Source: Candidatus Saccharimonadia bacterium (GTDB taxonomy: Bacteria > Patescibacteriota > Saccharimonadia > UBA4664). Taken from it: a stretch of DNA of 64,000 bases. Shown here piece after piece: positions 24,611 to 39,491 of this stretch. Position 1 is the first letter of the stretch; every line of letters begins with the position of its first letter. Below the pieces are notes generated by a model. That model was not told where the DNA came from. It did not search any database and saw only the letters and a program-made list of their open reading frames with translations. The position numbers were made by a program, and so were the translations under genes. The stretch lies in the NCBI GenBank assembly GCA_036488585.1, contig DASXHH010000009.1, forward strand, positions 366 to 64,365. Reading direction: 5' to 3'.

Positions 24611-26614
24611 CTAGCGACCGCGGACGGCTTTGCGAGGCTTGCGGGTAGCAGTACCGCCGAGCTCTTCGATCTGATCGCGCAAAGCTGCGGCTTTTTCGAA
24701 CTGGAGGTTTTCGGCGGCCATTTGCATCTGCTGAGTGAGCTCGGCGATGAGACGACCCCGCTCTTCTTTGGGAATGTCCTCGGGATGAATATCTTTAACG
24801 TCGGCTTTTTCGGCGGCTTCGGCGGTGCGCATACGCTCTCCCATCGCCTTCTTGATGCCTTCCGGTGTAATGCCGTGCTCTCGGTTGTAGGCCTCCTGGA
24901 TCTGCCGGCGGTGAGTGGTGGTGTCGATGGCCACACGCATGGCCGCGGTAGTGCGGTCGGCGTACATAATGACACGGCCCTCCACGTGGCGAGCGGCGCG
25001 GCCGATGGTCTGGATAAGGGCCGCTTCGCCGCGCAGGAAGCCTTCTTTGTCGGCGTCGAGGATGGCCACAAGCGACACCTCGGGCAGGTCGAGGCCCTCT
25101 CGCAAAAGGTTAATACCCACCAGCACGTCATACACGCCGGCGCGTAGGTCTTGCAAAATGTCGACACGGTCGAGGGTGTTGACCTCGGAATGCAGGTACT
25201 GGACCTTGATGCCGAGCTCCTGGAGGTACTCGGTGAGATCCTCGGACATGCGCTTGGTGAGGGTGGTAACGAGCACGCGCTGGCCCTTAGCGATGGTGGC
25301 GCGGATCTCGGCGATGAGGTCGTCGACCTGACCGCGTACCGGCCGCACGTCGATGGCCGGGTCGAGCAGGCCGGTGGGCCGGATTACTTGCTCTACCACC
25401 TGCGAGCTACGTGACAGCTCTAATTCGGCCGGTGTGGCCGACACGTAGACGGCTTGGTTGAGGTGGCGGTCGAATTCGGCGAACTTGAGCGGCCGGTTGT
25501 CGAGTGCGCTGGGCAAGCGGAAGCCGTATTCCACTAGGGTCTCCTTGCGGGCGCGATCGCCGTTGTACATGCCGCGCACCTGGGGCAAGGTGATGTGAGA
25601 TTCATCCACGAACAGCAGGAAGTCGTCGGGGAAGTAGTCGAGCAAGGTGGCGGGCTGTTCACCGGGCTCGCGTTCGGACAGGAAGCGGGAGTAGTTTTCG
25701 ATACCAGGTACCATGCCGGTCTCTTGGAGCATTTCCATATCGAACTTGGTGCGCTGCTTGAGGCGCTGGGCTTCAAGGTTTTTGCCGGCGGCTTCGAGCT
25801 GGAGTAGGCGGGCGTCGAGTTCCTCGCCGATCTTGGCGACGGCGCGCTGCAATTTTTCCTGGGGAGTGACGTAATGTTTGGCGGGAAAAACCTTAAGCTC
25901 GGAGCGGTCCTCTCCCACCTCGCCGGTGAGCGGGTCGACCGGACGGATGCGCTCAAGCTCGTCGCCAAAGAATTCCAGACGGTAGGCCTGCTCTTCGCCA
26001 ATCGGCCAGACGTCTACAACATCGCCGCGCACGCGGAATTTGCCGCGGGTGAAGTCGATGTCGTTGCGCTGATACTGGATGTCGGTAAGATGGCGGATCA
26101 TTTTGTCACGGAGGCGGGTTTGGCCTACCTTCACGTCGACGGTCATGGTGGTGTAGTCGGAAACGTTGCCGAGTCCGTAGATACAGCTCACAGAAGCCAC
26201 GATCAACACATCGCGACGCGTAAGCAGGCTCATGGTAGCGGCGTGGCGCAAGCGGTCGATTTCCTCGTTGATGGAACTGTCTTTCTCGATAAACGTGTCG
26301 GAGCGCGGAATGTAGGCCTCGGGTTGGTAGTAATCGTAATAACTCACAAAATATTGAACGGCATTGTCCGGGAAAAACTGCTTGAACTCGCCATAAAGCT
26401 GGGCGGCCAAGGTTTTGTTGTGGGACAGCACCAGAGTGGGCCGCTGAAGCTCTTGCACGATGTTGGCCATGGTGAAGGTCTTGCCGGAACCGGTCACACC
26501 CAAGAGAGTTTGCTCGCGATCGCCATGCTTAAGCCCGGCCACCAGCTGCTCGATGGCTTTGGGCTGGTCGCCGGCGGGGGCATAGTTGCTAACAAGTCTA
26601 AACTTTTGGTTCAT
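24611..26614 (-). CDS. uvrB: excinuclease ABC subunit B
   Basis: Helicase motifs ([16 protein letters not shown]), beta-hairpin region, and C-terminal UVR domain ([28 protein letters not shown]). Start at MNQKF. Confidence 0.95.
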
Positions 26615-26773
26615 TCGAGTAATTATAGCAGTTATTTGACATACCTGGTGATAAGTTTTATTCCAGTGCCAGATTGGGACAACACCCAATGTGCTGGCAA
26701 CTATGGACAAGTAGCGTGACCTCGGCACTAAGCCAAGAAGCAGCAAGCTTGAAAATTCGGAAGGAGCTGCCGC

Positions 26774-27601
26774 ATGGATACCCAGCTACTTACCCGTATA
26801 GAGCGCCCGCCCCGGCTGACCGTTGGCATACCAACGCGCAACGAGGAGAACACTATCGCGGTAGTGCTGAGCGACCTAGCTGCGGCGCTACGGAGAGAGC
26901 CGTCGCAGCTAATGGTGCTCGACGACAGCGACGACGACACGCCCGCTCAGGTACAAAGCGCTGTCTTCACAGAGCGAATCGGGGGACATCAGGTGGCGCT
27001 GCTGCACCGCGAGCGTGACGAGCGCAAAGGTGGACTCGCCTCCGAGGTACTACTCGGCCTCGAGATCGCCGGCCAGCAGGACGGTATGAAGTACTTCGCG
27101 CTCATGGACGGCGACGGCCAGCACGACCCGAAGGCCATTACCGACATGCTAGTTAAGATCGAGGAGACCGGCGCCGACATCGTGATCGCCAGCCGCTACA
27201 TCGAGGGTGGCCGGGCGACGGGCCTGAGTCCGGTCCGGGAGGTAGTGTCGCGAGCAGTAACACTACTCACTCGAGCCATTTTCCCGAAGCGGCTGGCCGG
27301 CGTGACTGACGTGGCCAGCGGCATGTTCATGGTGCGGCTGAAGTCGGTCGACACCAGGCCTGTATACGCCGATGGCTTTAAGATCCTGCTATCTCTGCTA
27401 GTCACGCACGACTGGTCCAAGGCCGAGGTAGCTTACGTATTCCGCGACCGGATCGCGGGCGAGAGTAAGGCCGGAGCCGCCGAGGGACTAAAGTTCCTGC
27501 GGCTGGTGGGCGCCCTGCGGCTGCGGTCGTGGCGCGAGCGCAGCCGGCAAGCGACAGAGAGGCTCTTCAAAGAGAGCATGAGCATCAAATCCCTCTTCTG
27601 A
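26774..27601 (+). CDS. GT2 polyprenol-phosphate sugar synthase (DPM1/GtrB/ArnC-like)
   Basis: [18 protein letters not shown] and MDGDGQHDP motifs typical of dolichol/undecaprenol-phosphate glycosyltransferases. GGAAGGAG Shine-Dalgarno. Confidence 0.8.
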
Positions 27602-27612
27602 CATCAGGAAGG

Positions 27613-29058
27613 ATGACAATGAAGAGTAAATGGTGGGTATCGCTACTGATACCGGCAGCGGCAGCGGTGCTAGTGACAAGTGCGCCGCCAGCCCAGGCCG
27701 GGATCGCCCAGCTCACTCGTTACCCCTACCTGACCGACGTGGTGCCGGCAGGTAGTACGGACAATGCAACGGTGAACTTCGCCACCGACCAAACAGTCAC
27801 TGCAGCCTACGCGACCATCGGACCGGTTGGCTCGTGCACAGGTACCAACCGCACGGGATCGAAGACCGCGATAGTCGTTAACGGCAAAGGTGAGTACCAG
27901 TGGAAGGTAAGGTTCACCGGACTAGCAGCCGCTTCAAATTACTGCTACCGGCTGCGGGCCGGAAGTCCAACGGCGCCCGGTCCTGATCTTCTGGGTACTG
28001 ACCCGTCACCGGTATTTATGGCTCCGGGCGGTAGCACCTCGTTCCAATTCGCCGTGATGGGCGACTGGGGCGATACAAACGCCGACGGATCCAACGCAGC
28101 TCAGGCCAGCCTGGACCAGCAGATCGCCTCTAGCGGCGCGCAATTTATGTTCGGCACCGGCGACACGGCCTACAACAGCGGCTCGCAATCGAACTACGGC
28201 GACCTGTTCCAGACCGGTTACCGGATTTCGGATGTGTTCCGGCAATCGTTCTTCGGGCAGGTTGGCGACCATATTCCGATATACAACGCGCTCGGCAACC
28301 ACGGAATGAGCTCCACCTTCCTGAATGTGTGGCCAGAGCCCTCGGCGCCATCGCTCTCTGGCGGGCGCTACCAGATGGACGCGTTCCCAAGTATCAACGG
28401 CTCGACAGCCGCGAGCTACCCGAGCGCATGGTACGCGTTCAGCGTGGGGTCAGCACGATTTTATGTACTGACAGCAGCCTGGGCCAACAGCAATGTTGGT
28501 ACAGGCAACATCTACAGCGACGACTACACGGCCCACTGGACCACCAACGCCGCTGAGTACCAGTGGCTAGCCGCAGATCTGGCAGCGCATCCTGGCGGAC
28601 TTAAGTTCGTATTCATGCACCTGCCGATGTACTCCGATTCCAGTACCGAGCACGCCGATACGTACTTGCACTCGGGCTCCACCGCCATGACGGACGCAAC
28701 GGGTGGCGTGGCCGCGCTGCTGTCCCAATACGGTGTGGATATCGTGTTCAACGGCCACGCTCATATATACGAGCGCAACTCCCGGTATCAGAGCGAGAGT
28801 TTCGTGTCGTACGTGACGGGCGGAGGTGGAAGCGTCCTCGAGCCGGTGGGAACCGGCGGGTGCGGCACCTACGATGCGTACGCCATCGGATGGTCGCCGA
28901 CTGCGCTCAAGGGCTACAAGTGCGGGGCAGCCATCGCGCCGAGTTCCGCCAGCCAGGTGTACCACTTCCTGCTCGTGAGCGTAAAAGGGCTAACCGTTTC
29001 GGTCACGCCGACGGCCTCTACGGGTCAGACCTTTGACGTCCAGACCTACTCCTTCTAG
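27613..29058 (+). CDS. secreted purple-acid-phosphatase-like metallophosphoesterase with N-terminal beta-sandwich domain
   Basis: Signal peptide, then the calcineurin-like motif series GDWGD, GDTAYN, GNHG and GHAHIYER. Confidence 0.75.
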   Translation: MTMKSKWWVSLLIPAAAAVLVTSAPPAQAGIAQLTRYPYLTDVVPAGSTDNATVNFATDQTVTAAYATIGPVGSCTGTNRTGSKTAIVVNGKGEYQWKVRFTGLAAASNYCYRLRAGSPTAPGPDLLGTDPSPVFMAPGGSTSFQFAVMGDWGDTNADGSNAAQASLDQQIASSGAQFMFGTGDTAYNSGSQSNYGDLFQTGYRISDVFRQSFFGQVGDHIPIYNALGNHGMSSTFLNVWPEPSAPSLSGGRYQMDAFPSINGSTAASYPSAWYAFSVGSARFYVLTAAWANSNVGTGNIYSDDYTAHWTTNAAEYQWLAADLAAHPGGLKFVFMHLPMYSDSSTEHADTYLHSGSTAMTDATGGVAALLSQYGVDIVFNGHAHIYERNSRYQSESFVSYVTGGGGSVLEPVGTGGCGTYDAYAIGWSPTALKGYKCGAAIAPSSASQVYHFLLVSVKGLTVSVTPTASTGQTFDVQTYSF

Positions 29059-29249
29059 GTGAAGGGGCAATGATTGGCGAAGCGGCGGCATAGAAACTGC
29101 CGCTTCGCCAACACTTTTTTGTAATTATTTCCAAATATACACCCCGCGGGCGTTGGTACGATGACGCCACCGTTTTCGGCAATAGCTCATTGAGAATATG
29201 GCAAAAAACAACCTTGGGACGATCGTCCCCACTTGCCCCCGGAGGCAAA

Positions 29250-30824
29250 ATGCTCAATGCATCGAACGCGGGCACAACGGTTGTCCCCGCACGCAGGCCG
29301 TTTGTAATGGTACTCACGGACCGCCGCCTACTCACAAGGGCTGCCTGGCTCATGGCTATCATGGGTGCGGGCGGCTTTTTGCGATTGTGGGACCTCGGCC
29401 GGATCGGCTTCAACAGCGACGAAGCCGTGTATACAGGCCAGGCCGCAGCACTAGCCGGCAATCCGCATCTACAGCCGCTATTCCCGGTGTTCCGGGCCCA
29501 TCCCCTGCTGTTTCAAGTGTTGCTGTCGCTGGTACTGCGTACCGGCACGAGCGACATCAAAGCGCGGATGGTAGCGGCGGCTTTTGGCATAGCAACCATC
29601 CTGGTGGTGTACCTGTTGGGCAAACTGCTCTATGGGGCGCCCGTGGGTATGGTGAGCGCAGCCATTATGGCTGTCACGCCTTACGGCGTGGTGGTAAGCA
29701 GGCAAGTACTGCTAGACGGACCGATGGCGTTCTTCGCTACCGTTACGCTCTACTGCCTGGCGCGATACTGCTTGGTGCGAGACCCGCGCTGGCTGTACGC
29801 GGCAGGCGCCATGATGGGCCTCACCATCCTAGCCAAAGAGACCGCCGCGCTGCTTCTCGTGGCCATCTTCGAATTCTTCGCTCTAGTTCGCACCCGGCGA
29901 CCCCGGTGGCGGGAATGGAGCGCGGCCCTGCTGATAATGATAGCGGTGGTGGCGGTATACGTGGCCGCCTTGGTGGTGGCACACCGAACGCACACAGGCG
30001 AGCAGTACTTTCTGTGGCAGAGCGCACGCCCGGCCAACCATTCCTACGGCTTCTACATCCGAGTGGTGCCGCCGGCCGTGGGCTGGGGCGTGATAGCCCT
30101 GGCCTTCGGCGGCGCGGCTTGGACTTGGCGGAGCAACGGGTGGCGGGAAGGGCTACTGTTGACATGGGTACTGGTGCCGGCCGCGGTGTTCTCACTGGTA
30201 GTAGCCATAAAAGGCTTCCAATACCTCGAGTTCATCGCTCCGGCCCTGAGCGTGCTGGCAGCCAGGACAGTCGTTTTGGCCCCGGTTCGGCATAAGCCCA
30301 GGCAGGCCCGGTTGGTGCAAATCGGCCGGGCGGCGGTGGGCGCATTGCTGCTCGTGAGCCTGGCGATCACCAGCTGGCAACAGCTCAACCCGGCGCCCAC
30401 CACCAGCTTCCTAGCGGGATCAGGTGGGCTGCCCGGCGGCCGGGAAACCGGCTACTGGGTAGACGGCCACGTGCCACAAGGTGGGCAACTACTGACGATC
30501 GGGCCATCAATGGCTAACGTGATTCAGTTTTATGGTCACCGGCGGACCTTGGCGCTATCAGTGAGCCCGAACCCGCTTGACCGCAACCCGTCCTACGAGC
30601 CAGTGGACAATCCGGACCAGCAACTCAGACAAGGAAACTTTCAGTACCTGGTATGGGACACCTTCAGTGCCCATCGCTCCCCCACTTTCTCATCCAAGCT
30701 ACTCAGTTACGTCAGCAAATACCATGGCGTAGCGGTGTACACACAGCTAATCCCGGTGAGACAGCGGGACGGACACACGTTCAAGACCCCGGTAATCGTG
30801 ATCTACGAGGTGATAAGCACGTGA
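29250..30824 (+). CDS. GT-C fold glycosyltransferase (PMT_2/ArnT/GT39-GT83-like), polytopic membrane
   Basis: FNSDEAVYTGQ (DE motif in the first loop), about 10 or more TMs, and a C-terminal soluble domain. GGAGG lies 5 nt before ATG 29250. Confidence 0.75.
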   Translation: MLNASNAGTTVVPARRPFVMVLTDRRLLTRAAWLMAIMGAGGFLRLWDLGRIGFNSDEAVYTGQAAALAGNPHLQPLFPVFRAHPLLFQVLLSLVLRTGTSDIKARMVAAAFGIATILVVYLLGKLLYGAPVGMVSAAIMAVTPYGVVVSRQVLLDGPMAFFATVTLYCLARYCLVRDPRWLYAAGAMMGLTILAKETAALLLVAIFEFFALVRTRRPRWREWSAALLIMIAVVAVYVAALVVAHRTHTGEQYFLWQSARPANHSYGFYIRVVPPAVGWGVIALAFGGAAWTWRSNGWREGLLLTWVLVPAAVFSLVVAIKGFQYLEFIAPALSVLAARTVVLAPVRHKPRQARLVQIGRAAVGALLLVSLAITSWQQLNPAPTTSFLAGSGGLPGGRETGYWVDGHVPQGGQLLTIGPSMANVIQFYGHRRTLALSVSPNPLDRNPSYEPVDNPDQQLRQGNFQYLVWDTFSAHRSPTFSSKLLSYVSKYHGVAVYTQLIPVRQRDGHTFKTPVIVIYEVIST

Positions 30825-32140
30825 AAGGTTACCGCATAATCGTGGACCTGGCACTAATGGCTGGGCTGGTAATATGGCCCCAAGCGGCTATAGCCAGCCC
30901 AGCTCCAGGGTCAGTCACACCCATCCAGCACCTCGTGGTGCTGATGCAATCCGGCCACTCCTTCGATAATTACTTCGGCACCTACCCAGGCGCCGATGGT
31001 ATCACTCAAGGAGTGTGCCTGCGCCCCGAGCTAAGCAAGACCAGCACTAACGGCTGCGTGCAGCCGTTCCATCTCGGCAATGAACCCGTTCAGGATCTCG
31101 AGCACAGCCTGAGCGTTTGGAGCCGCCAGTACGATAATGGCCTCATGGATGGTACAGTGGCGGCTTACCGGGCGCTGGGCCTGGGCACCAATACTCCCAT
31201 GGGCTATTACGACAGCCATGACCTGCCCTATTACTGGGGGGTGGCCCAGAACTATGTGCTATTCGACCACTTCTTTAGCTCGGCGCCCGTCGGGACCAGA
31301 CTCAACAGATTCTGGTGGGTTGCCGGGCGCTCCACTCCCGGCAACCTTGAGAGCCTCCCTAAAGGGGGCTACGGCAACATTCCAACCATCTTCGATCGGT
31401 TGGAGGCCGCCGGCGTGTCGTGGAAGTTCTACGTTCAGGGTTACCACCCGAATGTGACCTTCCGCTCCAACACCCGAGGCAAGAACTCCGAGCAGACGGC
31501 CTGGGTGCCACTGGTGGACTTTCCGCGGTTTGTAGATCAGCGAGAGCTGAATTCACACATTGTGGATATGAGCCAGTACTACACCGACCTCAACTCCGGC
31601 ACCCTGCCGGCGGTGGCGTTCATGACCTCGGCGCAGTCCAATGAGAGCCCGCCCGGTAACATCCAGGCGGGCCAACAGTTGGTGCGCCAGCTCACCACCA
31701 GCCTAGTCATGAGCCGCTATTGGCGTTCCAGCGCCTTTATGTGGACCTACGACGACTGGGGAGGCTGGTACGACCAAATGAAGCCGCCCCAGGGTTACGG
31801 TTTCCGGGTACCGGCGCTACTCATGAGCCCATACGCTAAAAAGGGCCAGGTTAACCACACAGTGCTTGATTACACGAGCATCCTGCGGTTTACCGAGTAC
31901 AACTGGCGGCTGGCACCACTGGCTAGTCGGGACTACCGGAGCAACAACCTGCTCAGTGCGTTCGACTTTACAGCTGGCCCACGCCCAGCCCAGCTGATCG
32001 GGCAAGCAGCCGTACTACCAGAAGCCAATGTCGCACCGGCTGTGTCAATTCTGTACCTACTCGCGATGGTGGTAGGGATTGCACTGGCACTGTGGGCATG
32101 GCTTACAACCCGATCGCCTGACGAGGTGATAAAAAAATGA
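30821..32140 (+). CDS. phosphoesterase-family protein (phospholipase C / AcpA acid phosphatase family), C-terminal TM anchor
   Basis: HLVVLMQSGHSFDNYFGTYPG matches the conserved ENRSFDHYFG region of PF04185. GTG start overlaps the upstream stop (GTGA). Confidence 0.7.
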   Translation: MKGYRIIVDLALMAGLVIWPQAAIASPAPGSVTPIQHLVVLMQSGHSFDNYFGTYPGADGITQGVCLRPELSKTSTNGCVQPFHLGNEPVQDLEHSLSVWSRQYDNGLMDGTVAAYRALGLGTNTPMGYYDSHDLPYYWGVAQNYVLFDHFFSSAPVGTRLNRFWWVAGRSTPGNLESLPKGGYGNIPTIFDRLEAAGVSWKFYVQGYHPNVTFRSNTRGKNSEQTAWVPLVDFPRFVDQRELNSHIVDMSQYYTDLNSGTLPAVAFMTSAQSNESPPGNIQAGQQLVRQLTTSLVMSRYWRSSAFMWTYDDWGGWYDQMKPPQGYGFRVPALLMSPYAKKGQVNHTVLDYTSILRFTEYNWRLAPLASRDYRSNNLLSAFDFTAGPRPAQLIGQAAVLPEANVAPAVSILYLLAMVVGIALALWAWLTTRSPDEVIKK

Positions 32141-33174
32141 AACTGCTAAGCCGCGGACTCGGCTTGGTGCTAGGACTGGTGCTCACGGGCGGTCTACTAA
32201 TAGTAGCCGCCCCACCAGCATTGGCCCAGCGCATAGTTACCCTCACCATAGTCACCGTACCGCACCTGCCCGCCGCCCGGTTCTCGTTTGACGGCCAGAG
32301 GGTGACCTCCGACAGCAAGGGAGTGGTGCGGCTATACGTACCGGCGAGCCGGAGCCCACATAAACTGCAATTGCTGACGCCTACGATAAGGAGTGGCGGG
32401 ACGCAAGCCCAGTTTGTGCGGTGGTGGGGGCAACCCAACCACGACCAAGATTACAAAACCAACCTTACAGGACTGTCGGTAGACCGTAGCGAACGACTAC
32501 AGGTAGCGTTCAGGGTAAGTTACCTGGTGAAATATCGCATGGTCAATCAAAACCATCAGCCCGTCGATTCCCGCCGCATCGAGCAGGTGGTGATCAAATC
32601 GGATACCGGTGAGCTCATTAATGTCCATGGAGGGCAAGCACGACTGACAGGCTACCGGCCGGCGCTCCAAAGCGGGACGATGGCCGAGAAGCAAGCGGTG
32701 TACTCGCTGTGGACGATCACCATTAACGGCTCGGATGCGATACACGCAGGCCAAATGCGATTCCTGCCCAGTCTGCCGCGCGATCAGAACCTGGAGTTTG
32801 TGATACCGCTCAAGAGTATCCAAATTACTGCCAGTGATCGGCTGCTCGGAAGGAGCGTGGGGAAGGCAGTGGTACTGACATTTCCAGACCACACATCAAC
32901 CACCATCCCGTTTGGCAGGAGCCACACGATAACGATCAATAACCTGGTACGAGGCAACTACCAAGTCCGACTGGTGGGCTCGAGTGGATTCGGTGGCAAC
33001 CGATCGCTCTCCCTGTCACGCAACCAGAATATAGTCCTTCGGGTCTGGAACTTCGAGGACTTCGCGCTGGTACTGCTAGTGCTGATTATTATCGTCACTA
33101 GCAGTCTGGTGGGTGGTCGGCTGGGACGACCCAGGCGCGCCCGACGCAAAAACGCTAAGGAGTCCGTGCCATGA
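32137..33174 (+). CDS. hypothetical secreted protein with C-terminal TM anchor (345 aa)
   Basis: Signal peptide, beta-rich body, and C-terminal LVLLVLIIIVTSSLVGG followed by a basic tail. Its ATG overlaps the upstream stop (ATGA). Confidence 0.6.
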   Translation: MKLLSRGLGLVLGLVLTGGLLIVAAPPALAQRIVTLTIVTVPHLPAARFSFDGQRVTSDSKGVVRLYVPASRSPHKLQLLTPTIRSGGTQAQFVRWWGQPNHDQDYKTNLTGLSVDRSERLQVAFRVSYLVKYRMVNQNHQPVDSRRIEQVVIKSDTGELINVHGGQARLTGYRPALQSGTMAEKQAVYSLWTITINGSDAIHAGQMRFLPSLPRDQNLEFVIPLKSIQITASDRLLGRSVGKAVVLTFPDHTSTTIPFGRSHTITINNLVRGNYQVRLVGSSGFGGNRSLSLSRNQNIVLRVWNFEDFALVLLVLIIIVTSSLVGGRLGRPRRARRKNAKESVP

Positions 33175-35339
33175 TGCGACTAATACGACGGCTGGGTCTG
33201 CTAACGGGCGCCATGATCGTGGCGCTATCTGTGACAGGCCTGGCGCCCGCCAGTGCCAGCTCTGGGCGACCCCCGGTGCTGGCCTACTACTACATCTGGT
33301 ATAACCAGGCGTCCTGGGGACATGGTAAGAGCGACTACCCGGCCCTAGGACGATATAATAGCGGCGACGCGAACATCATGCGCCAGCAGATCGAGCTGGC
33401 GAAGGGTGCGGGCATCGACGGCTTCATCGTGAGCTGGAAGGAGGCGCCCGACCTGGACGCGCGGCTGGCGACACTGGTGCAACTGGCACAGCAGGAGCAC
33501 TTTAAGCTGTCCGTCATCTACGAGGCACTGGATTACAACCGCCAGCCCCTGCCGGCGGCCAAGGTAGGCAGCGATCTGCAGTGGTTCGCAGCCCGCTACA
33601 GCAACAACCCAGTGTTTAACCTGTTCGGAAAGCCGCTGGTGATCTGGTCGGGAACGTGGATGTTCTCGCCCAGCGACATTCAAAAAGAAGTGGCGCCAGT
33701 GAGCAACCAGTTGCAGGTGCTGGCGTCGGAAAAAGACACTTCCGGATATCAACGACTGGCCGCGAGTGTCGCCGGTGACGCATACTACTGGTCGTCTGTG
33801 AACCCCTCCAGTAACCCCGGTTACGGCGTCAAACTGCACGACATGGCAAACATAGTTCACGCCGACCATGGGCTGTGGATTGCACCCTTTGCCCCTGGCT
33901 TCGATGCTCGGGACGTGGGCGGCCATGACGTGGTGTCGCGCAACGATGGCGACACACTAAGGACTGAGTACAGCACGGCGGTCACCTCCAGTCCTGATGC
34001 GCTGGGATTGATTAGCTGGAACGAGTACTCGGAGAATTCGGAGGTCGAACCCAGCCACAATACCGGCACGCTGTACCTGCGGGTACTACGCCAGCTCACT
34101 CACGGGCTCGGACCGAGCGCCGCTGAGCTGGGTATCGACTCCAGCGATTCCTCGGGCTCGGGCGGCGGCGGCCTGGCGCTACCCTTGCTAGGCCTGCTCG
34201 CGATACTGGTGCTCGTGACGATAGTGGGGATTCGCATGCGTGGCGGCCGCAACGACAACGACGAGGACGAGCCGCCTCCCCCACCACCGCGTCGCCGAGT
34301 TAGTTCAGGAAAGTTTCGAGCCGTAATGCGCCGCCGCGGGCTCGGACTCATCGTTGTGATGCTGGTGGCGCTGGTGCCGGCGGGAGCGACGGTGATTCCC
34401 AGCGACAAAGTCACTGAGACACCTCGTACAACGACGGCGGTGCCCGCGTCGGCGGTGGCTCATTACATGGGGCACATGCCGCCGGCCGGCAAAACCACAA
34501 TCACGATAGCCGCGGCCGGCGACATCGCCTGCACCGCGGGCGACCCGGATGCGGCTAACGCCCCGCTCTACAAAAACGATGTCTGCAAACAGCAGACCAC
34601 TGCCAACCTGATAACCAAGGTGATCCATCCGGATGCGGTGCTGCCGCTGGGCGACAACACCTATCCCAGCGGCAGCTTCAAAGGTTTCGAGCAGCTATAC
34701 GACCCGACATGGGGCAAGCTCAAGGCCATTACCTACCCAGTACCAGGTAACCATGAGTACGGCACGCCCGGAGCTAGCGGCTACTTCGCTTACTTCGGAA
34801 AGGCCGCCGGTATGCCAGGTCAGGGCTGGTACAGCTACAACATCGGCGACTGGCACATGGTGGCTCTCAACTCCGAGTGCGAGGATATTGGCGGCTGCGG
34901 CCGCGGGTCGCCCGAGGAGAGCTGGCTGCGGGCTGACCTGGCGGCCCATCCGGCGGCTTGCACGCTGGCCTACTGGCACAAGCCGCGTTGGAGCTCGGGC
35001 ACACACCACAGCAACGCCGCCTACAACGTCTTCTGGCAAGACTTGTACGCGGGCGGCGCTGACCTGGTGCTGGTCGGCCACGACCACGATTACGAGCGGT
35101 TCGCGCCGCTCGATCCCAGCGGAAAGGTGGATAACAACCGGGGAGTCCGGGAGATTGTAGCTGGCACCGGCGGCGACAGTCACTACCTCATACACACCCC
35201 GGTGAACGGTAGCCAGCGCCGCATCCAAGGAATATTTGGAGTGCTGGACCTAACGCTGCAACCACATGGTTACAGCTGGAAGTTTTTGGCGGAGCCAGGG
35301 GCGGGCGTGCTCGATTCTGGCTTGGCGGCCTGCCACTAA
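33171..35339 (+). CDS. fusion protein: N-terminal glycoside-hydrolase-like domain (GH99-like YYYxWY region) - TM - Pro/Arg-rich loop - TM - C-terminal calcineurin-like metallophosphoesterase
   Basis: PPVLAYYYIWYNQASW...GIDGFIVSW in the first domain. Two internal TMs (LALPLLGLLAILVLVTIVGI; LGLIVVMLVALVPAG). Second domain has GDIACT, GDNTY, GNHEYG and GHDHDYER. It is one uninterrupted ORF. Confidence 0.65.
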   Translation: MMRLIRRLGLLTGAMIVALSVTGLAPASASSGRPPVLAYYYIWYNQASWGHGKSDYPALGRYNSGDANIMRQQIELAKGAGIDGFIVSWKEAPDLDARLATLVQLAQQEHFKLSVIYEALDYNRQPLPAAKVGSDLQWFAARYSNNPVFNLFGKPLVIWSGTWMFSPSDIQKEVAPVSNQLQVLASEKDTSGYQRLAASVAGDAYYWSSVNPSSNPGYGVKLHDMANIVHADHGLWIAPFAPGFDARDVGGHDVVSRNDGDTLRTEYSTAVTSSPDALGLISWNEYSENSEVEPSHNTGTLYLRVLRQLTHGLGPSAAELGIDSSDSSGSGGGGLALPLLGLLAILVLVTIVGIRMRGGRNDNDEDEPPPPPPRRRVSSGKFRAVMRRRGLGLIVVMLVALVPAGATVIPSDKVTETPRTTTAVPASAVAHYMGHMPPAGKTTITIAAAGDIACTAGDPDAANAPLYKNDVCKQQTTANLITKVIHPDAVLPLGDNTYPSGSFKGFEQLYDPTWGKLKAITYPVPGNHEYGTPGASGYFAYFGKAAGMPGQGWYSYNIGDWHMVALNSECEDIGGCGRGSPEESWLRADLAAHPAACTLAYWHKPRWSSGTHHSNAAYNVFWQDLYAGGADLVLVGHDHDYERFAPLDPSGKVDNNRGVREIVAGTGGDSHYLIHTPVNGSQRRIQGIFGVLDLTLQPHGYSWKFLAEPGAGVLDSGLAACH

Positions 35340-35620
35340 CATGGCGAAACTGGGCCGGGGTGCAATTTTTGCCCCCGGCTCGGCCCCTCAGTCAATTGCT
35401 TGGGGGTATGAACGATTTTTGCGCAAAGGTGCGCTATTTTTTTAGGACTTATAGAGATGAGTGACAGTCGTGAGTGGTTTAGGTTTTACACAAGCCGTTT
35501 TTTTCAGAAAAAAGGGGCTGGGTTCGGGCACCTTTCGGGTGCAGGGGGATCTTTCACAACCAAGAGCACATGCTGCTCGTATCGAATCGTGCAAGTGAAG
35601 CAACGAGGAAGAGGCAGACC

Positions 35621-37510
35621 ATGTCTAATGCCATGCCACAAACACAGACCGCTACCGACACAGTGCCGGAGCCCCGGCTCTGGATTATGCGCCTCCTTAG
35701 TCACCGGTTTACGCGCGAGGCCATCAGCTGGGCTATCGTCGGACTCACCGGCGTAGCCGTAAACCAGCTCGCGCTCTGGGTGTTCGTGCAAATCGGCCTT
35801 GGACTGTGGCTAGCCAACATCCTGAACACGCCGGTCTCGACCACCTGGAATTTCTGGTGGATCGAGAAGCAGGTATACCACAGTAGCCGTCACCATCGAC
35901 TACGCCGGTTCGCCGGCGTGCTAGCAATCAACACATCGCTACTCCTGGTGCAGGGGCCGATGCTCATCTTTCTCATCGAGGTGCTACATAAGCACTATCT
36001 GACGGCCAACCTGCTCACACTCGCGCCGCTGTGGATCGTGCGCATGCTGTTGAGCCGGACGCTCTGGTTCAACACGTTCACGTCGGCGATGGCCGGCGCC
36101 GGCACCATTACCGACATCCCGGACACCATCGACCCAGACGAGCGCCGCGGTCCGGCGCGCCTAATCGAAGACGATGAAGTGCGGGGGTACCTCTACCGGA
36201 ACCATCTGCGCTGGAAGCCGCGCGGCCACCGGCGTAGGTTCTTCTACGACGTACATGGTTTGGTCCGGATCGTGAGCGATGTGCGCCTGCCAGAGCTGAC
36301 CGTATTCCAGATACAGCTGCACAACAAGAAGCGAATCGAGAGATTCGTGAAGCGCAGTCAGATTAAGATCGCGCGAGGGCGAGTCGGCAACACCACGCCG
36401 CGACGGCGGGTTGAGGCTTACCGAGTGAATGGTAAGCTGTTTAGCTACCTGGAACAATGTGGTAACCTCGGCGCCAACTTCCATGTTTCCCATAAGCACG
36501 GCGGGGAGCGCGTTCAGATTCGGGTGAGCCCACTGCTGGCTGGATCACCGCATGTGCTATACACCAACGTGGTGGAGGCCGTACTGCGCTTTATGTTGGC
36601 GCAGCGCGGGTACATGCTACTGCATTCGGCTACCATGGAGCTCGATGGGCGCGGAGTAATGCTGTCCGCCCGCACGGACACCGGCAAAACCGGCACAGTC
36701 CTGCGGATGCTAGCGGAACACGGGGACCGTATCCGGTTCCTATCCGACGACATGACCATCGTGAATGCCAAGGGTGAAGCCTGGTGTTACCCCAAGCCGC
36801 TAACTATTAGCTCGCACACACTGCGGGCCGTGAACCGCAAGGCGCTGAACCGATGGCAGCGAGTATTCCTGCCTGTCCAGAGCCGGATCCATTCCAAGAG
36901 CGGCCGAGGGTTCGCATTCCTGCTGGCCAAGCTCAACCTGCCGATTATGTCGATCAACTGCCTGACGCAGATGATCATCCCGCCACCCAAGTACTGGGTG
37001 GACGAACTGGTGCCGTGTCGAATCGCCAGACAGACCAAAGTGAAGCACTTGTTTATCATCGAGCGCGGCCACCAGATGAGCGAGCGCCCGATCGGGTGCT
37101 ACGAGGCTGTGGACGTCATGTTGGCTAACACCGAAGACGCCTACGGCTTCCCACCGTTCGCGATACTGGCGCCGGCCCTCACTCTCGGCGAGATCAACAA
37201 CCTAGTGCTGCGGACACGTGAGCGCGAGATCCTTAACGAGTTCCTGCGCTACATTCCTGTCACCAATCTGGTCGACCCCAACTTTGGTTGGGCCGATCGC
37301 ATTCCGGCGGCGCTGGCCAAGGGTGCACTGCCGAGTTTCCTCGTCCAGCACCAGATTGACAGCGAGCAGCTTCTGGCTCGCCAGGCGGTGCAGTCGGCGC
37401 CAGAGCTGCCGGCACTGGACGGGAGCCATGTGCCAGCCAACGGTACGGTCCTCAGGGGCGTGGTCGTGAAGATAATCAATGCCGAAAACGGTAACCAGGC
37501 GGAGGGGTAG
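35621..37510 (+). CDS. GtrA-like membrane domain fused to a large cytoplasmic domain with P-loop-like motif (AxxxxGKT; HprK/kinase-like?)
   Basis: N-terminal 4-TM GtrA-type region (AISWAIVGLTGVAVNQLALWVFV... WNFWW). C-terminal ~480 aa contains LSARTDTGKTGTVL and an RFLSDD segment. Confidence 0.6.
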   Translation: MSNAMPQTQTATDTVPEPRLWIMRLLSHRFTREAISWAIVGLTGVAVNQLALWVFVQIGLGLWLANILNTPVSTTWNFWWIEKQVYHSSRHHRLRRFAGVLAINTSLLLVQGPMLIFLIEVLHKHYLTANLLTLAPLWIVRMLLSRTLWFNTFTSAMAGAGTITDIPDTIDPDERRGPARLIEDDEVRGYLYRNHLRWKPRGHRRRFFYDVHGLVRIVSDVRLPELTVFQIQLHNKKRIERFVKRSQIKIARGRVGNTTPRRRVEAYRVNGKLFSYLEQCGNLGANFHVSHKHGGERVQIRVSPLLAGSPHVLYTNVVEAVLRFMLAQRGYMLLHSATMELDGRGVMLSARTDTGKTGTVLRMLAEHGDRIRFLSDDMTIVNAKGEAWCYPKPLTISSHTLRAVNRKALNRWQRVFLPVQSRIHSKSGRGFAFLLAKLNLPIMSINCLTQMIIPPPKYWVDELVPCRIARQTKVKHLFIIERGHQMSERPIGCYEAVDVMLANTEDAYGFPPFAILAPALTLGEINNLVLRTREREILNEFLRYIPVTNLVDPNFGWADRIPAALAKGALPSFLVQHQIDSEQLLARQAVQSAPELPALDGSHVPANGTVLRGVVVKIINAENGNQAEG

Positions 37511-37640: not shown

Positions 37641-38309
37641 TTATTCCGTGGGCTCGGAAAGGCCTTGGCTGTGCAGAAACCGTTCGTGAATTTCGAGGGC
37701 CTCGTCGGCAATCTCCTGCGGATCGGAGGCGCCACGGAAGATAAACTTTTCTTCGGCGCCAGCCGATTCAATCTCCACATCGCCGTAATTGAAGATGGTT
37801 CGGGCAATGCCCTTGCGAGTGCCGGTGACGTCCTGAACACGCACGAAGGCTACCTGCGAAATCCGATGGCTAAACAGTCCGTATTGCTCGGCCACTAGCA
37901 GGTGAACGTTAGTAAAGATGAGCACATTGCGCTGATATACGAACAGTCCGATTAGAAAAATAAGGGCCGCCAGCACCAGCAAGATCACCACGAGTGCGAA
38001 AACCATGAGACGCGGGAACGGGATGGTATCCGGGTAGCGTCCCTCGCCAAACGCGAACGCGAGGGCTACCAGTATAAGCAGAACCGATGTGAACAACGTG
38101 GGCAATAGAGTGAGCGGATGACGGTGAATAATTCGGGTGATTTGCTCACCGGGATCTAGATCGAAGCCATAGGGCGTGGGAGTCTCGCCGGGCTCGGGCA
38201 ATTCGCCCGTTTCGGCCGAGTGCCCGACGGTTGGACCCGGCTGCTCGGGGGCCGGTGGCTGGGCTTGAGCCGGCGATTGGTTGGGCGTTGGAATGGGAGT
38301 TTGGTCCAT
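37641..38309 (-). CDS. bacterial PH-domain (bPH_2/YdbT-like) membrane protein
   Basis: Two TMs followed by a PH-like region (VLIFTNVHLLVAEQYGLFSHRISQVAFVRVQDV...IFNYGDVEIES). Confidence 0.6.
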   Translation of the reverse strand: MDQTPIPTPNQSPAQAQPPAPEQPGPTVGHSAETGELPEPGETPTPYGFDLDPGEQITRIIHRHPLTLLPTLFTSVLLILVALAFAFGEGRYPDTIPFPRLMVFALVVILLVLAALIFLIGLFVYQRNVLIFTNVHLLVAEQYGLFSHRISQVAFVRVQDVTGTRKGIARTIFNYGDVEIESAGAEEKFIFRGASDPQEIADEALEIHERFLHSQGLSEPTE

Positions 38310-38324
38310 GGTAAAGCTATTATA

Positions 38325-39491
38325 CTACCCGACTTTGCCGAAGCCAGATGCCATTAAATTGAGTATCACCAGGGTGAGGCCGGAGAGCTGAGCGGCGGCG
38401 AACAGGCGGTAACGGGGGCTACGCCAGCGCGACAGACCCTTGCGCCATACCACCATGTGTGTGGCCGCGTACACGACGAGCAGCAGCAATAGCAGCATGA
38501 GCGTGGCCTGGGTATTCCAGCTGAGGGTGGCCACAACGGATAGTGGACGGAACAGACTATAGGCCTGAGGCTTGGGAGCCAAGGTGCCCGCTGGCGCCGG
38601 CGAGATTTCGCCGCTCACGACCGGCGGCGTGCCGATAGGCGTGGGCACTGGAGTGGGCGTAGGAACCGGGGTCGACACTGGAGTGGAGGCGGGGGTGGAG
38701 GCGGCGGCCACAGTGGGTCGTGGGGTGGTGGCCGGTGCTGGTGCTGCGGCCACCGGCTGGGCGGCTGTGGCGCCATAATGCGCCACCACCAACGTGGTCG
38801 GCTCGTTGGCCTGGGCTACTGGTGCGGTGCAGGTGGGCGTGGTGTAAGCCGAGCTGCCGCTCGAGGGAATGCTGTCGTAGGGCGACTGGCCGTTTTCCAC
38901 CGCGAAGCCGACGTCGGTATAGTGAGGATTGAGGATGTTGGCGCGGTGGCCGGGCGAATTCATCCAGCCATCCATCACGCCCTGGGCGGTGTCGAAGTCT
39001 TTAGCCAGGTTTTCGCCAGCGTAGGTGTAGTTGTAGCCAGCCAGCGTAAACCAGTGCCAGGGTTGGACGCAGGCCGGGCTGACATGGTTCCAGTAGTCGT
39101 TTGCGAACATGTCTTGGGCCTTCATGGAGGCGGAATTGTTAAGTCGCGCGTCCATGCGCAGAGCGGGCAAGCCACCTGCGGCGCGCTGTTGGTTGGTGAG
39201 ATCGAGCAGCTGGGTGGGCGTGATGCTGCCGGTGGCGTAGGACAGCACGTTACCGCCATTGGTGCTGCCGGCACCTTTCACTATAGGGGTCGGGGCGGAA
39301 TGGTGGATGGCCGTCGCCAGCGCGGAGGCTTGCAACCCGACGATTAGCACGGCCATCAGGGCCAGGCCGGGCAGACGGATCAAGTGGGGGCGATGGTCGT
39401 TGTGGGTATGCGGTACCAACCAGCGCTTGGCGTGACGCGCGAGGTGGTGATGCAACCGAACGGGTTGAGTTTTGCGCTTAGGTGTTCGCAT
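38325..39491 (-). CDS. secreted CAP/SCP/PR-1 domain protein with PT-rich linker and C-terminal TM segments
   Basis: CAP motifs (LLDLTNQQRAAGGLPAL; GENLA; GHRANILNPHYTDVGFAV). Low-complexity PVPTPTPVPTP linker. Confidence 0.7.
   Translation of the reverse strand: MRTPKRKTQPVRLHHHLARHAKRWLVPHTHNDHRPHLIRLPGLALMAVLIVGLQASALATAIHHSAPTPIVKGAGSTNGGNVLSYATGSITPTQLLDLTNQQRAAGGLPALRMDARLNNSASMKAQDMFANDYWNHVSPACVQPWHWFTLAGYNYTYAGENLAKDFDTAQGVMDGWMNSPGHRANILNPHYTDVGFAVENGQSPYDSIPSSGSSAYTTPTCTAPVAQANEPTTLVVAHYGATAAQPVAAAPAPATTPRPTVAAASTPASTPVSTPVPTPTPVPTPIGTPPVVSGEISPAPAGTLAPKPQAYSLFRPLSVVATLSWNTQATLMLLLLLLVVYAATHMVVWRKGLSRWRSPRYRLFAAAQLSGLTLVILNLMASGFGKVG

Follow-up and report, generated by a model that had tools for sequence, protein, structure and literature searches.

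A conserved, undescribed envelope cassette with glycosylation, kinase-like and phosphoesterase components, found rearranged in a Saccharimonadia genome

The glycosylation of LTA uses a trio of GT2, GtcA and GT-C proteins (PMC7389260, PMC8035078). Secreted proteins of Actinobacteria are mannosylated through Ppm1 and Pmt (PMC5882110). A three-component system described in connection with phosphorylated lipid-linked sugar intermediates in the mycobacterial DPPR-to-DPR arabinan route provides a further precedent (PMC11127046), and the return of the carrier lipid is known to require dedicated factors (PMC9876793). The locus considered here lies in a stretch of 64,000 nucleotides (the window) from a Candidatus Saccharimonadia bacterium. 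A preliminary description of this DNA had pointed out a run of seven + strand open reading frames combining GT2, GtrA and GT-C proteins with secreted phosphoesterases. That observation is confirmed for 7/7 reading frames, in coordinates and in domains, and its interpretation is partly supported. The features of the run are as follows.

26774–27601, + strand: GT2 (PF00535, E 9e-18; 275 aa, no TM helix)
27613–29058, + strand: PAP-like metallophosphoesterase (Metallophos E 1e-8; Pur_ac_phosph_N 25 bits, below cut-off)
29074–29121, + strand: terminator-like hairpin in the PAP/GT-C gap (15-bp stem, 10 G-C pairs, T6 tail)
29250–30824, + strand: GT-C of the PMT_2 type (PMT_2 E 1e-21; PMT E 1e-11)
30821–32140, + strand: PF04185 protein (PLC/AcpA, alkaline-phosphatase superfamily; E 1e-63; start GTG)
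32137–33174, + strand: hypothetical protein, the predicted stalk (signal peptide, three Ig-like domains, C-terminal TM helix)
33171–35339, + strand: GH99-like and metallophosphoesterase fusion (Glyco_hydro_71, Glyco_hydro_99 and Metallophos matches)
35420–35450, + strand: weak terminator-like hairpin in the gap before the GtrA gene (5-bp stem, T7 tail)
35621–36130, + strand: GtrA/DPMS-type four-helix TM domain (PF04138, E 2e-12)
36137–37510, + strand: HprK/PEPCK-like P-loop domain fused to GtrA (weak NCBIfam matches; AF2/Foldseek)

The last two domains belong to one gene (35621–37510, + strand). Overlapping GTGA/ATGA codons are confined to three junctions (30821/30824, 32137/32140 and 33171/33174); they link the GT-C gene through PF04185 and the hypothetical protein to the GH fusion, and terminator-like hairpins, placed more narrowly at 29074–29111 and 35420–35434, lie on both sides of this block. 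The PAP-like gene (realistic start 27613/27619, end 29058) is placed 11 nt downstream of GT2 without overlap, and a gap of 230–280 nt, which holds the weaker hairpin, precedes the GtrA gene. Since these hairpins split the run, it probably forms three transcription units. The single overlap-joined operon proposed earlier is thus not retained: the overlaps are real from GT-C to the GH fusion, but not for the PAP-like gene, which is followed by the stronger hairpin.

The run is a rearranged copy of a conserved envelope cassette. The same gene order was found in 16 genome loci of Chloroflexota and Actinomycetota. A set that recurs in one order in two phyla, and on metagenome contigs numbering in the hundreds, far exceeds what chance would produce. 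Roughly 100 genomic and metagenomic loci were surveyed, divided at a PF04185 identity of 40% and counted where assessable. Where identity was at least 40% (75 loci), a PMT_2-type GT-C lies upstream in 45/47 loci and the P-loop domain in 33/33; the hypothetical protein follows downstream in 46/51 and the GH99-like hydrolase in 33/37. The 25 loci below this threshold are mostly solitary, with a GT-C upstream in 5/21 assessable cases. This PF04185 subfamily is therefore essentially confined to the cassette. A literature search found no published description of it, in line with the earlier remark that the combination corresponds to no standard system. The carriers are mainly free-living soil Actinomycetota and Chloroflexota, which leaves the suggested scavenging from a host unsupported; Streptosporangiaceae bacterium NEAU-GS5 is a cultured carrier.

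The proposed polyprenyl-phosphate-sugar logic of GT2, GtrA and GT-C was upheld: the three parts are co-conserved, and some relatives have them in a single polypeptide, as in P0135 (1310 aa), which joins GT2, GtrA, the P-loop domain and PMT_2. GT2 carries the acidic motifs LDDSDDD (26918–26938) and DGDGQHD (27107–27127), and its sole PDB match is the Pyrococcus dolichol-P-mannose synthase (DPMS) 5mlz (E 5e-23). The GtrA family profile matches the TM domain of the same structure (E 5e-24). The two proteins thus resemble a split version of the Pyrococcus enzyme, and these matches identify them as the likely catalytic and membrane domains, respectively, of a DPMS-type polyprenyl-phosphate-hexose synthase. 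In most relatives GT2 forms one protein with GtrA and the P-loop domain; in the window the GT2 and GtrA genes stand at opposite ends of the run. The sugar is most likely mannose, because the only solved relative of both domains is a dolichol-P-mannose synthase and because the GH domain retains the GH99 ExxE pair.

The most unusual part of the cassette is the HprK/PEPCK-type domain. The preliminary description recognized GtrA correctly and overlooked this domain, although it makes up about 400 of the 629 residues as a separate cytoplasmic unit. It contains LLHSA (36617–36631), the Walker A motif ARTDTGKT (36668–36691) and LSDDMT (36740–36757). The His, Walker A and Asp-Asp elements make up the catalytic signature of HprK; they do not vary among 120 homologues or across the cassette loci. 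The NCBIfam matches (HprK-related kinase A, ScmC and HprK) are weak: for no named HprK family does the score come near the curated cut-off (25 bits vs. 200). The AF2 model (pLDDT 86) matches ATP-PEPCK (1.6e-5) and HprK/P (5e-4) in Foldseek, a moderate match with TM of about 0.43. In relatives the domain is fused to GT2 and GtrA and sometimes to GT-C as well (P0135); P0155, P0160 and P0216 join GtrA, the P-loop domain and GT-C. It appears to be a cytoplasmic phosphotransferase domain of the HprK/PEPCK fold, always attached to the synthase.

The GT-C protein has about 9–10 TM segments and a C-terminal ectodomain. Its NSDEAVY "DE" motif (29412–29432) is kept in 54/54 loci where it is readable. 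Its family profile shows no more than a distant relationship to yeast Pmt1, STT3 and Pmt4; the best PDB match, yeast Pmt1, reaches only E 5e-5. The protein does not group with characterised housekeeping transferases, and the genes are co-conserved, so that the grounds for refutation set out in the preliminary description fail. A domain search found no match to the bacterial PMT C-terminal domain.

PF04185, the sole core phosphoesterase, has a signal peptide, an ectodomain and a C-terminal TM anchor, and its GTG start overlaps the GT-C stop codon. Alignment to AcpA 2d1g and PLCs, together with a motif survey, shows that the window copy reads QSGHSFD (30947–30967) where the family has QENxSFD, and has thus lost the Glu-Asn metal dyad, whereas VGTRLNR (31289–31309), the region of the Thr nucleophile, and YDDWGG (31748–31765) are retained. 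Three secreted phosphoesterases are present as reported, but this one, lacking two metal ligands, may be inactive. About one cassette copy in three, the window's among them, lacks catalytic residues, and in several actinobacterial copies the loss goes further, yet the cassette persists; in such lineages PF04185 may serve as a partner without catalytic activity. Loci in which the dyad is lost have a PAP or metallophosphoesterase gene in 8/9 cases, and those with an intact dyad in 6/17, a link that is only suggestive, as the Fisher test (p = 0.014) ignores phylogeny among related loci. A phosphoesterase step appears integral to the cassette, since PF04185 is translationally coupled to GT-C and since PAP/metallophosphoesterase genes accompany the dyad-less copies. 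The richness in phosphoesterases noted earlier holds for PF04185 as a core part; the PAP-like enzyme and the small metallophosphoesterase are recurrent accessories, found in about half of the loci with variable presence and position. The PAP-like protein of the window carries a signal peptide and has one hydrophobic segment only, at the N-terminus; its N-terminal domain is FN3-like, and its set of metal motifs is complete (GDWGD, GDTAY, GNHG, GHAHIYER). In relatives such enzymes occur as fusions with polysaccharide-lyase, fn3 or CBM-type modules.

The hypothetical protein has no Pfam or NCBIfam match. Its AF2 model (pLDDT 86) finds B. anthracis TIE 6fwv (7e-11) as the best Foldseek match, plus Gram-positive pilins, which points to a tail-anchored surface stalk of three tandem Ig-like (CnaB/pilin-type) beta-sandwich domains; a signal peptide precedes these, and a basic tail follows the TM helix. 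The fusion next to it comprises a signal peptide, a GH99-like TIM-barrel, a TM hairpin (~34176–34406, two helices around a Pro-rich cytoplasmic loop) and a metallophosphoesterase ectodomain with the motifs GD, GDNTY, GNHEY and GHDHDYER (34509–35099). It was correctly reported as a fusion of a GH-like domain, without the GH99 identity that points to mannose. The catalytic motif is WNEYSEN (34017–34037), and alignment to BxGH99 4ad1 shows that E333 and E336, the GH99 catalytic pair, are conserved. The active-site motif is EWHE in GH99 vs. DYGE in GH71 (PMC11025385). In Pfam, GH71 (alpha-1,3-glucanase) scores level with GH99, so that a glucan may be the glycan in question. One relative (L103) carries this GH and metallophosphoesterase fusion too; in most, the two are separate genes. 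A signal peptide and C-terminal anchor are conserved for PF04185, the stalk protein and the GH.

We read the cassette, with a probability of about 0.5, as a polyprenyl-phosphate-mannose glycosylation module with a kinase-like domain and outer phosphoesterases. Its core would consist of the split DPMS-type synthase, the HprK/PEPCK-fold domain, GT-C and three tail-anchored proteins: PF04185, the stalk protein and the GH99-like hydrolase. On the inner face, the synthase would put a hexose on polyprenyl phosphate, and its kinase-like domain would phosphorylate the lipid-linked sugar. The donor would be flipped through the membrane, and GT-C would pass the sugar to an acceptor close to the membrane, which may be a lipoglycan or glycopolymer or else the stalk protein. 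On the outer face, the phosphoesterases would then take off or edit the phosphate, and the GH99-like enzyme would trim or free alpha-mannoside chains. A specific phosphate-on/phosphate-off step is a tentative element that we regard as doubtful. The analysis itself establishes the identities of the domains, their catalytic motifs and topology, the gene fusions and the co-conservation; mannose, the kinase substrate, the phosphate cycle and the acceptor are inferred. The substrate of the kinase domain is a guess, because the known HprK family acts on protein or peptide serines, neither lipids nor sugars.

The phosphoesterases might instead recycle the carrier lipid. After the GT-C reaction, PF04185 or a metallophosphoesterase would strip the polyprenyl phosphate set free on the outer face to neutral polyprenol, which would flip back unaided, be re-phosphorylated by the P-loop domain and be handed directly to GT2. 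The coupling of PF04185 to a polyprenyl-phosphate-releasing GT-C and the fusion of the kinase-like domain to an enzyme consuming polyprenyl phosphate would fit, as would the tail anchor of PF04185, whose relatives act on lipid phosphoesters at membranes, and the swapping of phosphoesterase families, as expected of simple monoester hydrolysis. Free undecaprenol and undecaprenol kinase are present in Gram-positive bacteria, and the dedicated factors for carrier return also speak for such a role. Recycling nevertheless seems improbable to us, since the PAP-like accessories are soluble and secreted, with fusion modules that suit a polymer better than a membrane lipid, and since it offers no role for the GH99-like enzyme or the stalk protein; moreover, we know of no lipid kinase of HprK/PEPCK-like fold. 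Protein O-mannosylation, with the stalk, PF04185 and GH as substrates or cargo of GT-C and the P-loop domain as a protein serine kinase or regulator, is likewise an unlikely explanation. The PMT/PMT_2 matches, the DE motif, invariant as in PMTs, the DPMS-like donor synthase, the serine specificity of HprK-family enzymes and the Ppm1/Pmt precedent argue for it. So does the stalk protein of one relative (L004), which carries at its N-terminus a long Ser/Thr/Pro-rich stretch of the kind that typically holds O-mannosylation sites. No such stretch was found in the window's secreted proteins, however, and GT-C is distant from solved PMTs and lacks the match to the bacterial PMT C-terminal domain. 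A cargo role also fails to explain the conserved catalytic motifs of GH and most PF04185 copies or the recurrent extra phosphoesterases.

PF04185 shares with LtaS its place in the alkaline-phosphatase superfamily and the use of a Ser/Thr nucleophile, and it could accordingly be an LtaS-like phosphotransferase that moves phospho-headgroups of membrane lipids to a growing teichoic-acid-like polymer glycosylated by GT-C. This corresponds to the phosphate-containing surface polymer suggested in the preliminary description. The retained nucleophile region, the membrane anchor, the coupling to GT-C and the parallel with the LTA trio are consistent with this. We hold it to be quite improbable: the frequent loss of catalytic residues is hard to square with a polymerase, the multi-TM domain of LtaS is absent from the cassette PF04185, and the P-loop domain is given no role. 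It is very unlikely that ordinary phosphate-starvation scavenging enzymes stand beside a glycosylation operon by chance, although PF04185, PAP and metallophosphoesterases are typical phosphate-scavenging exoenzymes, two of the families come and go between loci, and a hairpin separates PAP from the GT-C block. PF04185 is almost cassette-only, overlaps the GT-C stop codon and, unlike a pure scavenging enzyme, is kept after metal-ligand loss, and the small metallophosphoesterase is fused to GH in two loci. The glycosylation module with a kinase-like domain is thus our preferred reading. The cassette is widespread in bacteria yet undescribed, and it probably builds or edits a phosphate-bearing mannose coat at the cell surface.

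The seven plus-strand ORFs that the preliminary description had assigned at 26774-37510 all stand, each backed by Pfam/NCBIfam, and independent gene calls on matching metagenome contigs agree with the starts chosen for PAP, GT-C and PF04185. The run and its divergent neighbour read as follows.

24611-26746, minus strand: uvrB, divergent from the cassette run
First cassette ORF, plus strand: GT2 glycosyltransferase (PF00535)
Realistic start 27613 or 27619, plus strand: purple-acid-phosphatase-like (PAP-like) metallophosphoesterase
Realistic start 29250, plus strand: GT-C transferase (PMT_2/PMT)
Realistic start GTG 30821, plus strand: PF04185 phosphoesterase (E 1e-63)
Between the PF04185 and GH-metallophosphoesterase genes, plus strand: stalk protein, no family match
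One ORF, plus strand: GH71/GH99-like domain, then a metallophosphoesterase (Pfam)
Last ORF, plus strand: GtrA_DPMS_TM protein (Pfam)

The last ORF turned out to be more than the GtrA protein described earlier: GtrA comprises only residues ~55-167, and the remaining ~400 residues, which had been missed, form a P-loop domain with weak NCBIfam matches to HprK-related kinase A, ScmC and HprK. Upstream, uvrB lies with uvrC and uvrA at 15239-26746 on the minus strand, inside the 11.5 kb before the cassette, with orphan ORFs and an alpha/beta hydrolase between them. Convergent with the cassette end, 37641-39491 (minus strand) encodes a membrane protein of bPH/Yip1-like type and a 388-aa protein with a CAP (cysteine-rich secretory protein) domain; these two genes are not conserved beside the cassette in relatives.

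Of the start/stop overlaps claimed in the preliminary description, three were found, GTGA at 30821-30824, ATGA at 32137-32140 and ATGA at 33171-33174; the PAP gene is not joined in this way. Directly after PAP there is a strong terminator-like hairpin at 29074-29111, part of a near-perfect intrinsic terminator at 29074-29121 (15-bp stem with 10 G-C pairs, 8-nt loop, T6 tail), followed by an AT-rich spacer of 130 nt before the GT-C gene. This arrangement suggests that the PAP gene was inserted together with GT2 as a unit of its own. A weaker hairpin with a T7 tail lies at 35420-35434, 5' of the GtrA gene. Since the hairpins at 29074 and 35420 interrupt the run, a single operon was rejected for the window, and the genes probably form three transcription units: GT2-PAP, GT-C-PF04185-stalk-GH/metallophosphoesterase, and GtrA-P-loop. 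Rfam and tRNA scans gave nothing relevant within the cassette region. A compositional island was also rejected, the GC content of the cassette (0.59-0.61) being like that of the flanking DNA.

A genome scan with GT-C revealed 16 loci in MAGs of Chloroflexota (Anaerolineae, Limnocylindria, Chloroflexia) and Actinomycetota (Jatrophihabitans, Gaiellaceae, Acidimicrobiales, Mycobacterium sp.). In tblastn searches with the window proteins the order [GT2-GtrA-P-loop] - GT-C - PF04185 - stalk - GH recurs, and the same order with overlapping genes appears on three further Pfam-annotated metagenome contigs. Scanning JGI metagenomes with the PF04185 alignment gave at least 80 loci, and relatives are encoded by at least 554 of the first 600 pattern matches. 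Neighbours were counted at the 75 loci whose PF04185 is at 40% identity or more to that of the window. Upstream of PF04185, GT-C is present at 45 of the 47 assessable loci and the P-loop domain at all 33; downstream, the stalk protein is present at 46/51 and GH at 33/37. At the 25 loci below 40% identity PF04185 is mostly solitary, with GT-C upstream in 5 of 21 assessable cases. The contrast between the two sets marks out a cassette-specific PF04185 subfamily. Together with gene fusions, the recurring order and neighbour counts show that GT2, GtrA and GT-C are co-located and co-inherited.

The window sequence has matches in a JGI metagenome contig and in a Logan assembly, and its proteins are HEY2003991-97 in NCBI, from a MAG labelled Candidatus Saccharimonadia bacterium. 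The gene content is compatible with this label, which is NCBI's: uvrABC, a transketolase in two parts, genes of glycolysis and of the pentose-phosphate pathway, and numerous orphans. The C-terminal and N-terminal transketolase halves are separate minus-strand genes (54111-55097 and 55637-56509), in a block that also holds ribulose-P 3-epimerase, GAPDH, class II FBP aldolase and a PfkB kinase. Locus L103 (673-11060 of JGI Ga0075425_100007607; GC 65% vs. 59% in the window), the cassette's closest relative, shares the PAP insertion and the GH-metallophosphoesterase fusion, and carries an intact 867-aa GT2-GtrA-P-loop gene at its front. Identity between the two is 66-70% for PAP, GT-C, PF04185, GH and the metallophosphoesterase and 59% for the stalk protein, and goes down to 51% for the P-loop domain, 37% for GtrA and 31% for GT2. 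Because of this sharp fall, the synthase/kinase module of the window looks to have been split, moved, and either replaced (swapped) or subject to fast evolution. A complete overlap-coupled cassette, with a 956-aa PAP-like protein, is also present in a cultured actinomycete, Streptosporangiaceae bacterium NEAU-GS5, on contig JAGFNW010000005.1 of assembly GCA_017592665.1.

GT2 matches PF00535 (E 9e-18), and among solved structures its one relative is the catalytic domain of the Pyrococcus dolichol-P-mannose synthase, PfDPMS (5mlz; E 5e-23). This enzyme is also matched, in its four-helix membrane domain, by the GtrA section of the family profile (E 5e-24). As both match domains of one protein, GT2 and GtrA are, judged by sequence, the two halves of a DPMS-type synthase, split and standing at opposite ends of the window run. 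A GtrA_DPMS_TM domain is thus present as the earlier description had it, yet it is not a free small protein, being fused to the P-loop domain. The synthase would make polyprenyl-P-mannose at the inner face; mannose is the likely sugar, to which the DPMS-like synthase and the GH99 motif both point. A polyprenyl synthetase gene at 8985-10247 (minus strand) is a possible source of carrier lipid, although in relatives it shows no linkage to the cassette.

The P-loop domain reaches no curated HprK-family threshold in NCBIfam: it scores 25.4 bits against a cut-off of 200 for TIGR04352 (HprK-related kinase A), 18 against 125 for ScmC and 16 against 240 for TIGR00679. Its Walker A motif AxTDTGKT is invariant in the 120 best homologues (120/120); in the alignment it is preceded by an invariant His (LLHSA) and followed by an invariant Ser-Asp-Asp. 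The catalytic elements of HprK/P come in this same succession of His, Walker A and Asp-Asp. An AlphaFold (AF2) model (pLDDT 86, pTM 0.86) submitted to Foldseek retrieved ATP-dependent PEPCK as the best match (E 1.6e-5, TM about 0.43), followed by HprK/P (E 5e-4). The domain is therefore a member of the PEPCK/HprK P-loop superfamily within no named family. With HprK/P and the HprK-related kinases of RiPP clusters (TIGR04352, ScmC) it shares the His, Walker A, Asp-Asp signature and the PEPCK-like fold; it differs from them in scoring far under their cut-offs and in an extra N-terminal beta-domain, owing to which PEPCK is the best overall match. Unlike the RiPP-cluster kinases, it is tethered to the membrane by GtrA within a glycosylation pathway, and no peptide substrate gene is found at the cassette.

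An exhaustive search for the P-loop domain gave 862 clusters at 50% identity, 156 of them with an E of 1e-30 or better. It occurs alone or as GtrA+P-loop, GT2+GtrA+P-loop, GT2+GtrA+P-loop+GT-C and GtrA+P-loop+GT-C. Among predicted single polypeptides, the homologue P0135 (1310 aa) joins all four parts, and P0155, P0160 and P0216 join GtrA, P-loop and GT-C. These fusions tie the P-loop domain functionally to the donor synthase and to GT-C, and place it in the cytoplasm, between the GtrA C-terminus and the GT-C N-terminus.

GT-C matches PMT_2 (E 1e-21) and has about 9-10 TM segments. The acidic motif N[ST]DE[AST]VY in its first outer loop is kept in all 54 readable loci. Against PMT domains only the N-terminal PMT/PMT_2 region matches, with no PMT_4TMC or MIR match. 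The family profile is only distantly akin to yeast Pmt1, STT3A and Pmt4 (E 5e-5 to 8e-4; Pmt1 over ~100 residues), which sets GT-C outside the characterised housekeeping transferases; no clustering with any of them was seen.

The GH domain exceeds the cut-offs of both Glyco_hydro_99 (41.5 bits vs. 33) and Glyco_hydro_71 (42.6 bits vs. 34), and aligns to the Bacteroides GH99 endo-alpha-mannanase BxGH99 (4ad1) with an E of 7e-11. The active-site motif is EWHE in GH99 and DYGE in GH71 (PMC11025385). In the alignment to 4ad1 the catalytic ExxE pair is kept, SWNEYSENSEVEP standing opposite SFNEWHEGSQIEP: SFNEWHEG of 4ad1 corresponds to SWNEYSEN of the window, so that both catalytic glutamates, E333 and E336 in BxGH99, are conserved. 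The motif WNE[FY][ST]E is kept in 42/42 readable loci.

The stalk protein has a signal peptide, ~280 conserved residues, a C-terminal TM helix and a basic tail. Its model (pLDDT 86) shows three beta-sandwiches in tandem, similar to the TIE protein of B. anthracis and to the pilin/CnaB-type stalk domains of Gram-positive bacteria; relatives have an extra N-terminal Big_3_5 Ig domain, and one adds LysM. A word-based search gave 3 homologues and a profile search 13, a small number explained by fast divergence. In the homologue from a Jatrophihabitans MAG (L004:12843-14450; start codon uncertain), a Ser/Thr/Pro-rich repeat of ~150 residues (TPSDTSTPTPSDTS...), typical of an O-mannosylation acceptor region, lies ahead of the conserved domains. 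A signal peptide and a C-terminal anchor are common to PF04185, the stalk protein and GH, also in relatives, while PAP has a signal peptide only.

The window PF04185 protein is a full-length domain match (215.8 bits vs. the Pfam cut-off of 23). It shares the nucleophile Thr and the Asp-Asp motif with the PLC/AcpA acid phosphatases of this family, from which it is set apart as a distinct cassette-bound subfamily with a C-terminal TM anchor. The Glu and Asn of the motif QENxSFD are metal ligands in AcpA and the PLCs, with residue roles as in the AcpA structure. The window has QSGHSFD where AcpA has QENNSFD and the PLCs QENRSFD, which replaces the Glu-Asn dyad by Ser-Gly; the nucleophile and Asp-Asp are kept (VGTRLNR opposite GPTNPNR, YDDWGG opposite YDDSDG). 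The motif could be read in 72 cassette copies whose PF04185 reaches at least 40% identity; the dyad is EN in 46 of them and GD, GG, SN, SG or similar in 26. The PF04185 of L019 is an example with the dyad intact, and some actinobacterial copies are also without one Asp of the DD pair. On these motifs PF04185 is a probable pseudo-enzyme in several lineages, though retained. Since the copies are kept despite the probable loss of activity, a structural or binding role alongside GT-C is suggested.

Both window metallophosphoesterases, PAP and the domain at the C-terminal end of the GH fusion, match Metallophos and have the full set of metal-binding motifs (GDxG, GDxxY, GNH[DE] and GHxH). PAP-like and small metallophosphoesterases are accessory members, occurring at 8 of the 9 assessable loci with a degenerate dyad (window counted) vs. 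6 of the 17 with an intact one (Fisher p = 0.014, only suggestive as the loci are treated as unrelated). Strict replacement of inactive PF04185 by these enzymes was rejected, the larger sample having left only this tendency.

PAP-like enzymes of relatives appear as fusions with polysaccharide-lyase or fn3 modules, and large secreted CBM96-bearing proteins often adjoin the cassette. Very large secreted proteins lie beside it at four unrelated relatives' loci (L013:15135-19397, L019:19909-22556, L021:17396-19744 and L020:18489-), with CBM96, cadherin-like/Big_9, beta-helix or fn3 domains. The window itself holds a second envelope-sugar cluster at 41533-46123 (minus strand), like a chitin- or PNAG-type synthase/deacetylase set, in which polysaccharide deacetylases (41533-43209 and 44735-46123) flank a processive-type GT2 (43586-44671); the former has a weak CBM_4_9 match under the Pfam cut-off.

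A working scheme can be built on the parts of the cassette and on their observed catalytic motifs, sidedness, co-inheritance and fusions. At the inner face the synthase would load mannose onto polyprenyl-P, and the attached kinase-fold domain would phosphorylate a hydroxyl of a membrane-proximal substrate. At the outer face GT-C would transfer the sugar, anchored PF04185 or substituting metallophosphoesterases would remove or edit the phosphate, and the GH99-like enzyme would trim or release alpha-mannoside chains, the stalk protein serving as scaffold or acceptor. Our preferred reading is that a lipid-linked donor or product is phosphorylated, the phosphate being added inside and removed outside. 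Three points speak for it: the unusual features that stay constant in the cassette are two, a cytoplasmic kinase and phosphoesterases at the outer face; the phosphoesterase family is interchangeable; and soluble polymer-directed PAP fusions can apparently substitute. That the P-loop domain is the first HprK/PEPCK-fold kinase with a lipid-linked substrate (polyprenyl-P-mannose, or else polyprenol itself) is a tentative proposal to which we give a probability of roughly one in four.

The same kinase and phosphoesterases could serve a dephosphorylation/rephosphorylation loop of the carrier lipid; as to the substrate, polymer-bound phosphate fits better than lipid phosphate, given the PAP fusions and the CBM96 proteins nearby. 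A system dedicated to protein O-mannosylation, in which the kinase acts on protein, would draw on the likeness to actinobacterial and eukaryotic Ppm1 (DPMS)/Pmt O-mannosylation, with which the cassette shares the DPMS-like donor synthase, the PMT/PMT_2 match and the DE motif. However, GT-C is distant from the solved PMTs (E 5e-5) and without their extra domains, and we know of no kinase-like or phosphoesterase parts in Ppm1/Pmt systems; the cassette is an additional dedicated module, whose hosts presumably also have housekeeping Ppm1/Pmt. PF04185 might instead have an LtaS-like phosphotransferase role, which would employ its conserved nucleophile and have to accommodate the departure from PLC/AcpA in about a third of copies, where the dyad is replaced (Ser-Gly in the window; GG/GD/SN etc.). 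Least compatible with the data is the view that phosphate-scavenging genes are merely adjacent: phosphoesterases do stand in the run, but PF04185 keeps its neighbours across the loci counted.

The favoured phosphate-on, phosphate-off reading has a likeness in the mycobacterial decaprenyl-P-ribose-5-P to DPR route and pentofuranose three-component systems, where a lipid-linked sugar bears an extra phosphate that a dedicated phosphatase takes off before or around GT-C transfer (PMC11127046); a three-component system has been described in connection with phosphorylated lipid-linked sugars that are intermediates in the making of mycobacterial arabinan (PMC11127046). In these pathways, however, the phosphate comes with the PRPP donor and is removed in the cytoplasm, whereas in the cassette it would be added by a kinase-fold domain, and the phosphoesterases lie outside the cytoplasm. 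There is no relation between the enzyme families either (UbiA-type and PAP2/HAD vs. GT2, HprK-fold and PF04185/metallophosphoesterase).

The GT2/GtrA/GT-C logic is well known. In GtrA/GtrB/Gtr* of Shigella and Salmonella phages, CsbB/GtcA/YfhO of lipoteichoic acid and ArnC/ArnT, a GT2 makes the polyprenyl-P-sugar as in the cassette, and a GtrA-family four-helix module, an outer-face GT-C and clustered genes are further likenesses. The GtrA module of these three-component systems is a free small flippase, whereas that of the cassette matches the membrane domain of a DPMS-type synthase and always comes with the ~400-residue P-loop domain. The obligatory PF04185, the Ig-like stalk and the GH99-like hydrolase are not known from any of the described systems. 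The Actinoplanes gsf 'GtrA-dependent' cluster consists of other genes. Literature searches yielded no account of the cassette; set against what they found, the additions to GT2/GtrA/GT-C appear new, namely the obligatory domain of HprK/PEPCK fold, the dedicated subfamily of PF04185, the GH99-like enzyme and the Ig-like stalk.

GT-C lipid-carrier glycosylation is a central route of bacterial envelope decoration, and to our knowledge neither a built-in domain of kinase fold nor an obligatory phosphoesterase at the outer face is part of any described version. Common as it is, the cassette occurs in abundant soil phyla with poorly known envelopes; as the cultured NEAU-GS5 carries it, the question can be tested directly. 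Should the kinase act on a lipid-linked sugar or on the carrier lipid, this would be a new activity for the fold and a new logic of carrier-lipid control or recycling. If the proposal is true, the result would be a 'phosphate-gated' glycosylation cycle, in which phosphate added at the cytoplasmic face is taken off by dedicated outer-face phosphoesterases, yielding an anionic phosphomannan-type envelope polymer in soil Actinomycetota, Chloroflexota and at least one Saccharimonadia-labelled MAG.
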